Made by a program: the position numbers and the translations under genes. Of a DNA stretch of 32,000 bases, positions 9,714-32,000 are shown piece by piece; within the stretch, counting starts at the first letter, position 1, and each line of letters begins with the position of its first letter. Origin of the DNA: Clostridia bacterium (GTDB lineage Bacteria > Bacillota > Clostridia > TANB77 > CAG-465); assembly GCA_017536445.1 (NCBI GenBank), contig JAFXHJ010000001.1, positions 34,300 to 66,299 of the forward strand, written 5' to 3'. The notes below the pieces were generated by a model. The model made no database searches. It was not told the origin of the DNA and worked only from the letters and a program-made list of their open reading frames with translations.

Positions 9714-9749
9714 ATATATAAATATGTGTGAATTTATATAGACGGTACA

Positions 9750-9778
9750 TTGACCATAAAACAAATTTGTTATATCAT
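9750..9778 (+). promoter_or_regulatory. sigma-A-type promoter for the inserted 508-aa gene
   Basis: TTGACC (9750-9755), 17 nt spacer, TATCAT (9773-9778). Confidence 0.45.
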
Positions 9779-9802
9779 TATTTGTATAAGAGGGTGAATA
9801 AT

Positions 9803-27863: not shown

Positions 27864-28556
27864 ATGGTACTTAATTTTTTAGGAAGTGGTTCTGGTTTTG
27901 CAGATAATCACACCTCGGCGTATTTCACTACAAATGACAAGGAACTTGTCATTATTGATTGCCCGGTATCTGCTTTTCAAAAGTTGAAACGGATGAAACT
28001 TGGTGATTATGAACAAATCTATGTTTTCGTAACACATACTCATGGCGACCATGTTGGAGGACTTGGACTTTTTGCTCAGTATGTATTCTTTGTTTTGAAA
28101 AAGAAGCTTACAATCGTGGCGCCTTCTTCTGATGTGTTCGAAGATATTTTGACCATCATGAAAATTGAGGGCAACGACTCTGAGTGGTACAACTTGGAAC
28201 ACGTATTGAATCTTGCGGAGAAACCTTGGCTTAAAGGTTGCATTCCTACAGTTCATTCGCCGCAACTTGAAAGAAAATGTTTTGGATACAAGTTCTTCGC
28301 AAATGGCGAGACCATTATATATACCGGAGATACAGCTACGCTTAAGCACTTCCTTGAACGAATGGAAGATGTTAAGGAACTTTATGTAGATACTTCGGTA
28401 TATTACGGAATGATTCACCTTAAGCTTGAAGATGCATTGCCGAAATTTCTTGAACTTAACCAAAGTGGAGTAGAGGTATTCCTTATGCACTTAGACGATG
28501 CTAATGCCGCTGAAAAAATGGTTGCAAATTATCCGAAAATTAATGTTGTAAGATAA
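27864..28556 (+). CDS. MBL-fold metallo-hydrolase
   Basis: 230 aa: LGSGSG near the N-terminus, HxHxDH motif VTHTHGDHVGG, and a later YTGDT / H motif pattern. Confidence 0.85.
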   Translation: MVLNFLGSGSGFADNHTSAYFTTNDKELVIIDCPVSAFQKLKRMKLGDYEQIYVFVTHTHGDHVGGLGLFAQYVFFVLKKKLTIVAPSSDVFEDILTIMKIEGNDSEWYNLEHVLNLAEKPWLKGCIPTVHSPQLERKCFGYKFFANGETIIYTGDTATLKHFLERMEDVKELYVDTSVYYGMIHLKLEDALPKFLELNQSGVEVFLMHLDDANAAEKMVANYPKINVVR

Positions 28557-28572
28557 GATTTGAGGAGGAAAT

Positions 28573-29622
28573 ATGATTTGTTTTGAAAGAAAAAAGATTG
28601 AGTCTTGGAGTACACCTAACGGTTGTATGGGACATATAACCTTGGAACGGTTAGCTAAACCCGAGACAGTCAAAGTTATGCTAAATGGTGAGGAAATAAT
28701 TCCTATATCATTTAATGCATTTGGACATCCTAACTTTAGCGAAGAGCAAGATATGCTCTTTATGTTTAAAAAGGAAGCATTAAGTAGAGCAGCTGGCAAA
28801 CATGTGAGTCTGGAAGCTGATGTTACATACGAAGAAAGGGTATTTGATGTACCTAGAGCATCTTTTGATACCAAAGAAGGCATTAATAAATCTATTACTA
28901 GCCTTAAGGGATTAAGAGAACTCTTGAACAACAGAAGTATGTACTTGAAGGTACATCCAAAAGAAAGACTTAATGAGTTTGTCATTTTCAATTGCTTTTG
29001 GCTTGATCAATTTGCTCAGGTAATGTCGCTTGAAAATCCGGAAAATACAGTTGGGATTAAGCTGCCGGATGTAGTAGATATGGACATTTTTAGGCGGTAT
29101 AATTCTAATTTGTCATTCTCTACTGGCGGCAGAGCTATTCCTACAGAAGATGCAGTATGTCCTTGCTGTGGAAAAGCTTTTACACTTGAAGATGTAAAGA
29201 GGAATACTGCGGTCTATGTAGAAGGTAAGTATTATCACAGAGAATGCAGATTAAATTACGAGCATCTCCATGAAATAGATAGACTTACACGAATTCTTAT
29301 GGACATTGTTTATGACTATAAGGATTACACATTTGATCTCTTACCGAATGGGTACTGCAGTAGAGGCTGCTGTAATCATCTTCCATGGCTTCTGTGTCAT
29401 ACGCCAGACGGCGATATTATCATCGGCTGGAGAAAAAGAGTAATTTCTATTGAATGGCAAGAAAACTATAAGCCTTTTGATATGAATGAACTTTTTGCGG
29501 ATGAGAATGTTACCAAGTGGATTGAAACAAATAAATGTGGTATCCATGCTTGGGGCAGAGAAAAAGCTTATGAGTATCTTAAGAAAGTGCGTGAAAAGGT
29601 CAATCCTGATTACAAAAAGTAA
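28573..29622 (+). CDS. hypothetical protein with Cys/His-rich C-terminal half
   Basis: 349 aa, 16 nt after the MBL gene with a GAGGAGG SD. Cys/His clusters: CPCCGKAF...YHRECRLNYEHLHE...CSRGCCNH..LCH...CGIH. No family recognised. Confidence 0.75.
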   Translation: MICFERKKIESWSTPNGCMGHITLERLAKPETVKVMLNGEEIIPISFNAFGHPNFSEEQDMLFMFKKEALSRAAGKHVSLEADVTYEERVFDVPRASFDTKEGINKSITSLKGLRELLNNRSMYLKVHPKERLNEFVIFNCFWLDQFAQVMSLENPENTVGIKLPDVVDMDIFRRYNSNLSFSTGGRAIPTEDAVCPCCGKAFTLEDVKRNTAVYVEGKYYHRECRLNYEHLHEIDRLTRILMDIVYDYKDYTFDLLPNGYCSRGCCNHLPWLLCHTPDGDIIIGWRKRVISIEWQENYKPFDMNELFADENVTKWIETNKCGIHAWGREKAYEYLKKVREKVNPDYKK

Positions 29623-29637
29623 TAACAAAAATAAAAC

Positions 29638-29671
29638 AAAACACCTTGAGAATTTTCTCAAGGTGTTTTTG
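29638..29671. terminator. bidirectional terminator between convergent operons
   Basis: ACACCTTGAGA / TCTCAAGGTGT stem, flanked by an A-run (5') and a T-run (3'). Confidence 0.8.
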
Positions 29672-29700
29672 TGTGCTGGTAGTATTACAAAAATCAAACG

Positions 29701-30018
29701 TTAGAATCCAAGCTTCTTTTTGAATTCAGCGCGAATCTTCTTTTCGACTTTTTCAGTTACTTCTGCAGTAACTTCTTTTTCGATTTCGCTTCGCATGGTA
29801 GAAACAACTTCTGCTTTAATCTCAGCACGCATTTCAGCCTCTTTTTTCTTAAGCTCTGCTTCAATGTTTTTCTCGTACTGAAGAAGTCTTTTTCTTAAAC
29901 GATCGTTTTCGTCTTCCAAGCGTTTGTTCTCTCTTTCAAGAGAAGGGCTAGAATCACAGTTGCAATTGCAATTACATGCACTGCAAGCGCCACAGTTAGA
30001 GCCATCACAACTAGGCAT
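29701..30018 (-). CDS. Cys-rich N-terminus / charged coiled-coil protein (candidate radical-SAM substrate)
   Basis: 105 aa. AAAGGAGGA lies 8 nt upstream of the ATG, and the start overlaps the rSAM gene's 3' end by 8 nt. Sequence: MPSCDGSNCGACSACNCNCNCD (7 Cys in residues 4-21) followed by an E/K/A-rich helix. Confidence 0.75.
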   Translation of the reverse strand: MPSCDGSNCGACSACNCNCNCDSSPSLERENKRLEDENDRLRKRLLQYEKNIEAELKKKEAEMRAEIKAEVVSTMRSEIEKEVTAEVTEKVEKKIRAEFKKKLGF

Positions 30019-31033
30019 TATTTTGTCCTCCTTTATGGTAAAGAATTTTTTTGATCATATACAAGATAACAGCTTTCATAATGTCGCAAGTAAAGTTTTT
30101 ATTGATTTCTTTATTGTGCATTTTGCAACCGCCACCACATATATCTGCAATTGAACAATCCTTACACTTTTCAGGCAAAGTGTAGTTGTATCCGATTTTG
30201 TAAGCTTTTTGATCTTTCATTGCCTGTACGATGTTATCGCAAGTATAAATGTTGCAAATAGGATCATCGTTTACGAGTGTTTGACAAGGGAAAACATTAC
30301 CATCTACATCAATGGTTATAAGTTTTTCTCCAGCAGTACAGCCATCGTAGTTACTGTCAATTTTGATGTTGTTGAACTTGAAACGATGATAGATATCATA
30401 TCCGGAATTGGATAAAACATCTATAACCTCTTGCATCTTATCTAAGATAATCTTAGAATCGATTTCGCCGCAGAAGAAATGGTCAAGATAAACACCCCAG
30501 CCAAGATTTCTTTTTGCGACCCATTCAGCCAAAACATCTACATCGCCAAAACTCTTTTCATCTACAACAGTAGAAATATCAATGTTATTGATGCCTATTT
30601 TAAGCAACTTGTCTACATTGGCTTTAACGATTTCGGCAGAACTTTTTCCGTTAATAAAAGGCTTGGAATAAGAATAACCATCTAAGGAAATTCCAAAGCC
30701 AATTTTATCTTTGTATTTAGTAAAGAATTCAAGCATTTCATCCGTTAAAATGGTAAGGTTAGTAATAATGCTAACGAAACCTTTAGAACCGCATTTGTTT
30801 AAGAATTCTTGGACGAACTCTTTCCAATCATGAAAAACAAGAGTAGGTTCGCCGCCAGCTAAACGATATACAACAAAATCCAGTTCACCGGTGTCGAGCA
30901 TATGTAGAAATCTGCTGTTTATTTTGTCGTAGGTTTGCCTAGACATTTTTTTGTCGTTCCACTTGACATAGCAGTATGGACATCGAAGGTTGCATTGGTT
31001 AGTGGTAAATATCCACGGGGACATATACTTCAT
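30011..31033 (-). CDS. radical SAM / SPASM-domain peptide-modifying enzyme
   Basis: 340 aa: CNLRCPYC (CxxxCxxC), GGEPTL, and SPASM elements C-x12-G-x4-C (CTAGEKLITIDVDGNVFPC), CKDCSIADICGGGC and a trailing C. Confidence 0.9.
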   Translation of the reverse strand: MKYMSPWIFTTNQCNLRCPYCYVKWNDKKMSRQTYDKINSRFLHMLDTGELDFVVYRLAGGEPTLVFHDWKEFVQEFLNKCGSKGFVSIITNLTILTDEMLEFFTKYKDKIGFGISLDGYSYSKPFINGKSSAEIVKANVDKLLKIGINNIDISTVVDEKSFGDVDVLAEWVAKRNLGWGVYLDHFFCGEIDSKIILDKMQEVIDVLSNSGYDIYHRFKFNNIKIDSNYDGCTAGEKLITIDVDGNVFPCQTLVNDDPICNIYTCDNIVQAMKDQKAYKIGYNYTLPEKCKDCSIADICGGGCKMHNKEINKNFTCDIMKAVILYMIKKILYHKGGQNNA

Positions 31034-31046
31034 TTTGTAATCCTCC

Positions 31047-31265
31047 TTAATATCCTTTTACGATAGTTTCAAGCATAACATAGTAGTCGGTTCTATCGTA
31101 GGAATCATCCTTACCTACAACTTTTACGCCAAACATGCCGCGAATAAATGCGGCTTTTTCTGCCACGTTTTTGATTCTTGTGGTTTCTTCAATAAGTTCG
31201 TCTGCCTTTTCTGCACTAGGTGCAGTTTCAATTAATAGTTTGAGTTGCTCATGGGTTAAGTTCAT
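31047..31265 (-). CDS. small soluble protein, paralogue of the upstream membrane protein's C-terminal domain
   Basis: 72 aa after an AAGGAGA SD, with an ATGA overlap to the upstream gene. It aligns without gaps to residues ~165-230 of the 31262-31954 product (L..E.L..LI.TAP...A..IE..T.I....EK...I). Confidence 0.7.
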   Translation of the reverse strand: MNLTHEQLKLLIETAPSAEKADELIEETTRIKNVAEKAAFIRGMFGVKVVGKDDSYDRTDYYVMLETIVKGY

Positions 31266-31954
31266 TGTGTATTCTCCTTAATAGTATTTTTTGACATGAC
31301 TTGCTGTAAGATATCCATATAAATTTCTTCCTCGTCATTGAGAGAAACTTTTATAAGGGATTCTTTATAAAGTTTTTTGATTAAAAGATACTTCTCGCGT
31401 GTATCTGTTATACCTGTAACAGATTCAATAATATGATTTGCAATATCTGTGTTTGGTGCGGTAGAAATTAAGTGCATAAGTTCTTCTGAACTCAAGATTT
31501 CCGCCATATCTCCAGAAACAAATGTAGCTTTCTTTTTTTCTCTAGCACGCGCTAATCTAATTCTTCTTCCATCAAAGTTTGCGACAGTAATAATTATAAT
31601 GCTTATACCAATGTTTGTTATGTGTATCCAAAATAAAGGTAAAGCGATTCTACCACCGGTAGCAATTAATAGTGATGAACCAAAGAGCAACGCGTTAAAG
31701 ACAACAAGATTCTGGATTCTTATTAACATCTTCATATACTTTTCCATTGTTTTGTCTTCCTGTTCATCATATTGATTTCCAAGAAAAAGAGTCAAAACAT
31801 AATACATAGCAAAGTACAGTAGACCAACGAAAATACCAGACATTATAGATAGAAAAAGCATTTTTTCAGTCCGGACAAAGTAGTTACAAAATGTGCCATA
31901 GATGATTCCAAATATGCCAAATACAAGGGCCGTAATATAGTATCGTTTTTTCAT
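31262..31954 (-). CDS. 4-TM membrane protein with soluble C-terminal domain
   Basis: ATG 31954 follows AAAGGA (the track's TTG 31969 is less likely). Four hydrophobic helices, a basic RRIRLARAREKKK stop-transfer segment, then a ~85-aa soluble tail. Confidence 0.75.
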   Translation of the reverse strand: MKKRYYITALVFGIFGIIYGTFCNYFVRTEKMLFLSIMSGIFVGLLYFAMYYVLTLFLGNQYDEQEDKTMEKYMKMLIRIQNLVVFNALLFGSSLLIATGGRIALPLFWIHITNIGISIIIITVANFDGRRIRLARAREKKKATFVSGDMAEILSSEELMHLISTAPNTDIANHIIESVTGITDTREKYLLIKKLYKESLIKVSLNDEEEIYMDILQQVMSKNTIKENTQ

Positions 31955-32000
31955 ATGTAATCCTTTCAAAAATTATTTTTTCAGTATATTAAATTAACAT

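Follow-up and report, generated by a model that had tools for sequence, protein, structure and literature searches.

Four minus-strand genes lie end to end at the edge of a 32,000-nt stretch of a Clostridia bacterium contig (JAFXHJ010000001.1, assembly GCA_017536445.1, positions 34,300-66,299), referred to here as the window. They raise the question of whether a radical-SAM/SPASM enzyme, the small cysteine-rich protein encoded next to it and two upstream genes make up a single protein-modification system, and of what the enzyme might do to its neighbour. In the order of transcription the genes encode TM230, a membrane protein with four transmembrane segments (31262-31954, 230 amino acids (aa) from its ATG, although the open reading frame (ORF) listing extends to a TTG at 31969); p72, of 72 aa (31047-31265); the enzyme, of 340 aa (30011-31033); and p105, a 105-aa protein beginning MPSC (29701-30018). 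TM230 and p72 share an ATGA overlap at 31262-31265, a 13-nt gap containing GGAGG separates p72 from the enzyme gene (31034-31046), and the enzyme and p105 genes overlap by 8 nt (30011-30018), with an AGGAGG located 8 nt 5' of the p105 ATG. The run ends at a bidirectional intrinsic terminator at 29638-29669, a hairpin of 14 pairs followed by a T-run; the hairpin scan of the region gave six such sites, against 2.7 expected. A preliminary description of this DNA had reported the same four ORFs, coupled junctions and terminator, and all of its sequence-level statements were reproduced. Its view of the genes as one tightly coupled operon survives as geometry but not as a single system, since the four genes are a resident two-gene operon (TM230 and p72) joined to a foreign two-gene cassette. 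The two genes of this cassette, for a short radical-SAM/SPASM enzyme (core gene 1) and for an MPSC protein, its presumed substrate (core gene 2), form the functional unit, a module derived from phages. On balance we favour the view, by analogy with characterised maturases, that the enzyme makes thioether crosslinks in the leaderless N-terminal core of the MPSC protein.

The pairing of the two genes was followed across 13 distinct locus groups with an enzyme at least 45% identical to that of the window. (Compared loci carry L-numbers; L001 is an extension of the contig that covers the end of the window and the sequence beyond it.) An MPSC ORF sits beside the enzyme gene in every one of the 13, and the proposal that p105 is the partner of the enzyme thus held up. 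In 11 groups it lies immediately downstream, overlapping or at most 15 nt away; in L109 it is immediately upstream, and in L003 it is one gene removed. A contig scan, dominated by matches to the generic pattern CNLxCxYC, recovered L003 as its sole true family member; the approximately 79 other loci, with unrelated radical-SAM/SPASM genes, served as negative controls, and when they were scanned for the MPSC pattern none proved to have a genuine ORF of this kind. No genuine MPSC ORF was found either at L107, a 35%-identity outgroup from [Clostridium] fimetarium. Across the family loci there was no other conserved neighbour of the enzyme gene: the neighbourhood test proposed in the preliminary description was positive for p105 and negative for TM230 and p72, whose homologues are absent from the other family loci. 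The distances among enzymes and among their partners are correlated (Mantel r = 0.73, p = 6e-4).

Profile searches of 1.84 billion representative sequences returned 83 unique partner proteins, in 49 clusters at 50% identity. All are between 51 and 180 aa long and each was matched from its first residue. M1, S3 and C4 are invariant, while P2, D5 and G6 are found in 82, 74 and 76 of the 83, respectively. The N-terminal segment is 12 to 35 residues long and consists to 92% of C, S, G, A, N and D; three to seven Cys fall within the first 32 residues in 82/83 partners, with C4-x4-C9-x2-C12 as the commonest spacing (62/83). In p105 itself the Cys are at positions 4, 9, 12, 15, 17, 19 and 21, ie seven within residues 4-21, as previously noted. 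Its codons 1-24 (MPSCDGSNCGACSACNCNCNCDSS, 29947-30018, minus strand) encode the putative core. An AlphaFold2 (AF2) model built with a 43-sequence alignment predicts this part to be flexible or disordered (coil, pLDDT approximately 52), and residues 25-103 (29710-29946) to form a single long charged helix (pLDDT >96), a candidate coiled-coil handle for which only weak coiled-coil-type family matches were obtained. The codons for MPSCDG differ synonymously between loci and every copy is preceded by a Shine-Dalgarno site of its own, which on sequence grounds marks the MPSC gene as real. No non-synonymous change separates p105 from its counterpart in L106 (dN = 0).

This layout is not that of a canonical ribosomally synthesised and post-translationally modified peptide (RiPP), as residue 2 is where the conserved Cys-rich segment begins in 83/83 partners. 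The unusual arrangement first noted in p105, with a core at the extreme N-terminus, a helix next and neither protease nor exporter, is conserved over the 83 unique partner sequences; in the neighbourhoods examined no protease or exporter is conserved beside the pair. The composition of the segment resembles that of Cys-rich ranthipeptide cores. In 12/83 partners (P0134, P0148, P0179, P0187-P0189, P0191, P0192 and P0197 among them) the helix is followed by a K/R-rich tail, an indication that these phage versions may bind nucleic acid or membranes. The locus L003 (7014-7819), from the metagenome-assembled genome of a rabbit-gut Clostridia bacterium, departs from the usual arrangement: an enzyme of 52% identity is followed by a Cys-free 121-aa coiled-coil protein and then by a 112-aa protein, 'MPSCDWTEYED...', with a single Cys. 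The arrangement gives the impression of a lost Cys-rich spacer and a detached helix.

The enzyme belongs to the radical SAM superfamily, within it to the SPASM subfamily. It carries the motif C14-x3-C18-x2-C21 and a complete SPASM signature (C232-x12-G245-x4-C250, C290-x2-C293-x5-C299-x3-C303, C316), as the preliminary description had stated, and all ten of these Cys, three radical-SAM and seven SPASM, are invariant in an alignment of 20 homologues. The general profiles are matched above their cut-offs: Radical_SAM PF04055 at 61.8 bits (cut-off 29.5), SPASM PF13186 at 21.7 (21.5) and NCBIfam TIGR04085 at 45.7 (27). The NCBIfam and Pfam searches that had been suggested for the 340-aa protein place it outside every curated subfamily. 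The best curated match, the PapB ranthipeptide maturase NF047865, reached 93.3 bits with a cut-off of 340, followed by anSME TIGR03942 (66.3 with 349), QhpD TIGR03906 (61 with 453) and the SCIFF maturase ScfB/CteB TIGR03974 (46.3 with 425). For the enzyme, searches of NCBIfam, Pfam, PADLOC and PHROGs produced no more than generic radical-SAM/SPASM matches, and for p105, p72 and TM230 they produced nothing meaningful. Homologues of the enzyme form approximately 90 clusters at 45-100% identity, nearly all metagenomic. The ratio of non-synonymous to synonymous substitution (dN/dS), measured against L106, is 0.04, and the enzyme is thus under strong purifying selection.

Because its CX3CX2C motif begins at residue 14, the enzyme has no N-terminal domain and hence no RRE domain, whereas the corresponding motif of CteB begins at C104 (PMC10177961). 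The cluster ligands were compared with those of CteB, TigE and anSME by a profile search of the PDB; phmmer with the single enzyme sequence gave no PDB match at 1e-8. The SPASM Cys align with C344, C362 and C413 of CteB, which ligate auxiliary cluster 1 (AC1), and with C400, C403 and C409, which ligate auxiliary cluster 2 (AC2). The trailing seventh Cys, C316, corresponds to C432 of CteB, an assignment made by motif order. No eighth conserved SPASM Cys was found in the alignment of the enzyme family, and the insert that supplies the extra AC1 Cys of anSME is absent. The aligned sequences thus predict an AC1 with three Cys ligands and an open site, and an AC2 with four. The same three-plus-four scheme is shared by CteB, PapB and Tte1186, in which AC1 binds the Cys or Sec of the substrate (PMC10177961).

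The family to which the pair belongs is mainly phage-borne and has occasionally been captured by bacteria, a point absent from the preliminary description. This is concluded because the pair occurs on viral contigs and in phage contexts, while the bacterial chromosomal copies form one closely related subgroup scattered over unrelated contexts. The pair was found on six viral contigs of IMG/VR, of which two measure 290 and 332 kb. Other loci are situated in long same-strand arrays of small ORFs, where the neighbours include DnaB, dUTPase, DUF551, RNA ligase, HNH and homing endonucleases and members of PHROG families. The bacterial copies are 79-83% identical, have partners of approximately 105 aa and are intact. 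The enzyme matches phrog_1802 at 6e-36, with BFVD structure matches at TM up to 0.75; no close relative was found in GenBank phages, where identity is at most 29%. No description of phage radical-SAM/SPASM enzymes with Cys-rich partners was found in the literature searched. Homing or HNH endonuclease genes lie near the pair in L083 (6922-9589), L090 (357-1025) and L089 (8934-9554), a proximity that could relate to the mobility of the cassette.

How a phage module came to sit in what looks like a native operon is apparent from related genomes. In L102-L105 the gene order is phosphorylase...TM230-p72-terminator-DUF1385-MFS-truA-xerD, and the enzyme gene, p105 and the two plus-strand genes converging on the terminator in the window are all missing. 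The copies of p72 in these four loci are 86-89% identical and adjoin TM230. In L102, L103 and L104 the stop codon of p72 is followed at once by a hairpin, AAAACACCTTGAG..CTCAAGGTGTTTT, which recurs 3' of p105 in the window. Because of this, the insertion point can be fixed: the cassette of approximately 1.37 kb containing the enzyme and p105 genes (29673-31046, minus strand) is an insertion placed precisely between the stop codon of p72 and the terminator, which is ancestral to the resident TM230-p72 operon. p72 is accordingly a resident gene that is co-transcribed with the cassette and lies outside the conserved module. From the position of the cassette between the p72 stop codon and the operon terminator, it is probably expressed by read-through from the resident promoter. 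The preliminary description had placed that promoter at or beyond the edge of the window, and a promoter-like TTGCTA-17-TAAAAT does occur just outside it, at L001 9000-9028 (approximately window 32006-32034). Its further suggestion that more genes might belong to the operon was not borne out, as the next features 5' in L001 are a tRNA-Leu with its own terminator and then a divergent glycogen phosphorylase gene.

On its far side the terminator is flanked by a second inserted pair (27864-29622, plus strand), which converges on it and consists of genes for an MBL-fold hydrolase (27864-28556) and for a 349-aa protein that contains Cys (28573-29622). L001 and L106 have both this pair and the enzyme pair, and L102-L105 have neither. 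L106 is 78% identical to the window lineage upstream, approximately 89% over p72 and the enzyme gene, and approximately 99.5% from p105 through the MBL gene (L001 9752-13150 compared with L106 6408-9806). These steps in sequence identity indicate that L106 is a recombinational mosaic, with nested recent recombination across the insert, and because of them the block appears to have spread recently by recombination. The GC content at third codon positions (GC3) is 0.34-0.37 in the enzyme-p105 cassette, 0.31-0.37 over the insert genes as a whole and 0.14-0.21 in the housekeeping neighbours. Somewhat elevated values are found in p72 and TM230 too, which makes GC3 a weak argument for a foreign origin.

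The strict pairing, the cluster-ligand pattern, the position of PapB as best curated match, and the predicted disorder and the composition of the N-terminal segment together lead us to infer that the MPSC protein is the substrate of the enzyme. The reaction can be pictured as follows. The free, unstructured N-terminal segment of the MPSC protein would thread into the barrel of the enzyme, where the thiolate of a substrate Cys, with the invariant Cys4 as prime candidate, would bind the open iron of AC1. The 5'-deoxyadenosyl radical would then take a hydrogen from a nearby acceptor residue, possibly one of the Asp and Asn that are abundant in the segment, and a thioether would form between the Cys sulphur and carbon, probably several times per molecule. 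The helix would stay outside, serving as a handle for docking or oligomerisation and as the functional body of the product. Since no leader would be removed and nothing exported, the crosslinked protein would be expected to act inside the cell.

Among characterised systems the pair would work most like ranthipeptide/SCIFF maturation and the QhpD-QhpC system. SCIFF loci often lack a protease or exporter. The ranthipeptide/SCIFF systems (CteB-CteA, ScfB-ScfA, Tte1186, PapB-PapA) likewise place a radical-SAM/SPASM enzyme beside a small Cys-rich ORF and have three Cys at AC1 and four at AC2 (PMC10177961), and PapB provides the best curated match to the enzyme described here. They differ in that here the core is at the extreme N-terminus, with no leader and with a helix of 30-150 residues after it, and in that the enzyme lacks an N-terminal RRE, scores far under the cut-offs and is distributed mainly among phages. 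QhpD, for its part, introduces several Cys-to-Asp/Glu thioethers within the small protein QhpC (PMC7876137), ie its target is, as here, a small protein and not a short secreted peptide, and the MPSC segment is rich in both Cys and Asp. However, QhpC requires a 28-residue N-terminal leader, the QhpE protease and an ABC exporter (PMC7876137), whereas leader, protease and exporter are absent here and neither the window nor L001 contains QhpC, QhpE or QhpF neighbours. Phage radical-SAM/SPASM proteins from other sources (PHROG 1802, Campylobacter CP220-like phages, gut Myoviridae) are also phage-encoded and have the same fold; compared here by enzyme sequence and fold, they reach at most 23-29% identity and carry only generic annotation.

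Several observations weigh against thioether formation as the reaction. The enzyme scores far under the cut-off of every curated subfamily, PapB included (93/340). Its AF2 model (pLDDT 88) was matched by Foldseek about equally well to ChlB, anSME and CteB, at TM of approximately 0.73, so that a cyclophane synthase and anSME stand as high as CteB, and fold matches of this kind do not discriminate between reaction types. The pattern of three Cys at AC1 is not specific for thioether formation either, because it is also found in TigE, a cyclopropylglycine synthase. Among the partners the spacing of the Cys is variable, the L003 partner has a single Cys, and no acceptor residue is invariant, D5 (74/83) coming nearest. 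The co-divergence of enzyme and partner could come from the linkage of adjacent genes alone, and the thioether chemistry itself is argued by analogy. We consider it rather unlikely that the enzyme modifies the MPSC protein in another way, by converting Cys4 to formylglycine as anSME does, by forming a C-C or cyclophane-type crosslink, or by epimerisation. Besides the ChlB and anSME structural matches, such chemistry would suit the status of Cys4 as the only invariant Cys and the one-Cys partner of L003. The anSME enzymes (AtsB/ChuR) are moreover of similar size (340-370 aa), have no RRE and modify a Cys of a protein without a leader. However, their AC1 is fully Cys-ligated and the fourth ligand is missing here, none of the partner sequences contains the anSME recognition motif C/S-x-P/A-x-R and there is no sulfatase nearby. 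The partners are dominated by Cys and lack the aromatic-x-x motifs of cyclophane substrates.

The MPSC protein might instead not be a substrate at all. It could be a subunit for metal or Fe-S binding or for targeting, built as a coiled coil with a Cys-rich cap and an occasional basic tail, and would then aid the enzyme in acting on something else, for instance nucleic acid or a protein of the host. The recurrent C4-x4-C9-x2-C12 spacing (62/83), the K/R-rich C-terminal tails in 12/83, suggestive of nucleic-acid binding, and the absence of leader, protease and exporter all speak for such a subunit, yet neither the number (one to seven) nor the spacing of the Cys is conserved, the segment that would have to bind the metal is predicted to be disordered, and most characterised SPASM enzymes modify peptides or proteins whose genes adjoin their own. 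We therefore regard this role as unlikely. A system of all four genes, with the membrane protein as exporter, immunity protein or anchor and p72 as a soluble recognition subunit, is very unlikely, in spite of the translationally coupled or overlapping genes, the one shared terminator, and the lack of an RRE domain in the enzyme, which would make a separate recognition protein plausible. It is largely refuted by synteny: TM230, p72 and the same terminator occupy the same position in L102-L105 without the enzyme or MPSC gene, homologues of TM230 are confined to one narrow lineage (15 clusters, 67-100% identity), and none of the further phage and bacterial loci of the family that were searched contained TM230 or p72. 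The membership of these two proteins in the system, which the preliminary description had assumed, is thus withdrawn. p72 is indeed a free paralogue of the C-terminal tail of TM230, as was claimed (37% identity over 43 residues, E = 1e-7), but as a candidate stand-alone RRE-like recognition protein it was rejected on its distribution. It is extremely improbable, finally, that the cassette in this bacterium is an inert phage remnant. The insert is small and foreign, its GC3 is raised and it has no promoter of its own, which would suit a remnant; however, both ORFs are intact, every catalytic Cys is kept, dN/dS is low for the enzyme and dN is zero for p105, the block has spread recently between genomes that differ by approximately 22% in the flank, and relatives at 79-83% identity are intact in other bacterial contexts.

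The usual way to find radical-SAM/SPASM maturases is through a leader-core peptide that adjoins the enzyme gene. The present family breaks this search rule, as the core begins at residue 2, the rest of the protein is a long helix, and the locus contains no gene for leader removal or export. If the pairing is enzymatic, it would offer a small system, of two genes only, in which to study how a SPASM enzyme recognises its substrate without a leader, and a candidate for a new class of phage effector; post-translationally crosslinked phage proteins are almost unexplored, and this enzyme family is mostly phage-carried. More tentatively, phages of gut Firmicutes, jumbo phages included, may encode post-translationally crosslinked small proteins, each with its own radical-SAM/SPASM enzyme that staples a leaderless N-terminal Cys-rich cap onto a coiled-coil body; some copies have basic tails. 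Rather than being secreted as an antimicrobial, the product might work within the infected cell, where it would help to take over the host, counter defence or bind nucleic acid, and the pair would occasionally have been captured by bacteria. This wider proposal is possible, though we would not yet call it probable; if true, it would mean that radical-SAM maturases have a further, new type of substrate architecture, and that a module of this sort is for the first time shown to be mainly viral. The insertion also carries a caution for operon-based prediction of function, as a foreign cassette placed between a stop codon and a terminator mimics a native operon.

The second inserted pair, the MBL and 349-aa genes, is absent from all other family loci searched. 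The MBL protein matches phrog_392 at 1e-26. Its identification as Apyc1 was rejected, as PF23023 gave 23.4 bits over residues 4-78 only, with a cut-off of 50; the protein likewise reached only 24 of the 400 bits needed for NF041851. The 349-aa protein contains CxCC and CC motifs. Its C-terminal 85 or so residues match hypothetical proteins of jumbo phages, including one at 46% identity from a 595-kb uncultured phage; a scan of IMG/VR with the protein gave no match.

On the 5' side of the resident operon, the tRNA-Leu(UAA) is located at L001 8879-8965 (approximately window 32069-32155), between the phosphorylase gene and TM230. In the relatives L103 and L105 this interval holds instead an ABC-F gene, a methyltransferase gene and a different, anSME-like radical-SAM/SPASM gene, which scores 258 bits with TIGR03942 (cut-off 349). 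The interval between phosphorylase and TM230 looks like an insertion hot spot. A LiaG-like DUF4097 gene separates TM230 from p72 in L102 (6698-7393) and L106 (5697-6395), and because of its position it hints that the resident pair may belong to a cell-envelope stress module. Elsewhere in the window, four non-ribosomal ORFs lie within the ribosomal-protein/secY/adk/rpoA string, at 9728-11852 and 13621-16372 on the plus strand. Two of them, of 533 and 170 aa and neither with a Pfam match, are in the secY-adk interval; the other two follow 3' of adk and encode a 396-aa protein without a match and a 365-aa HipA_C-like protein (38.7 bits).

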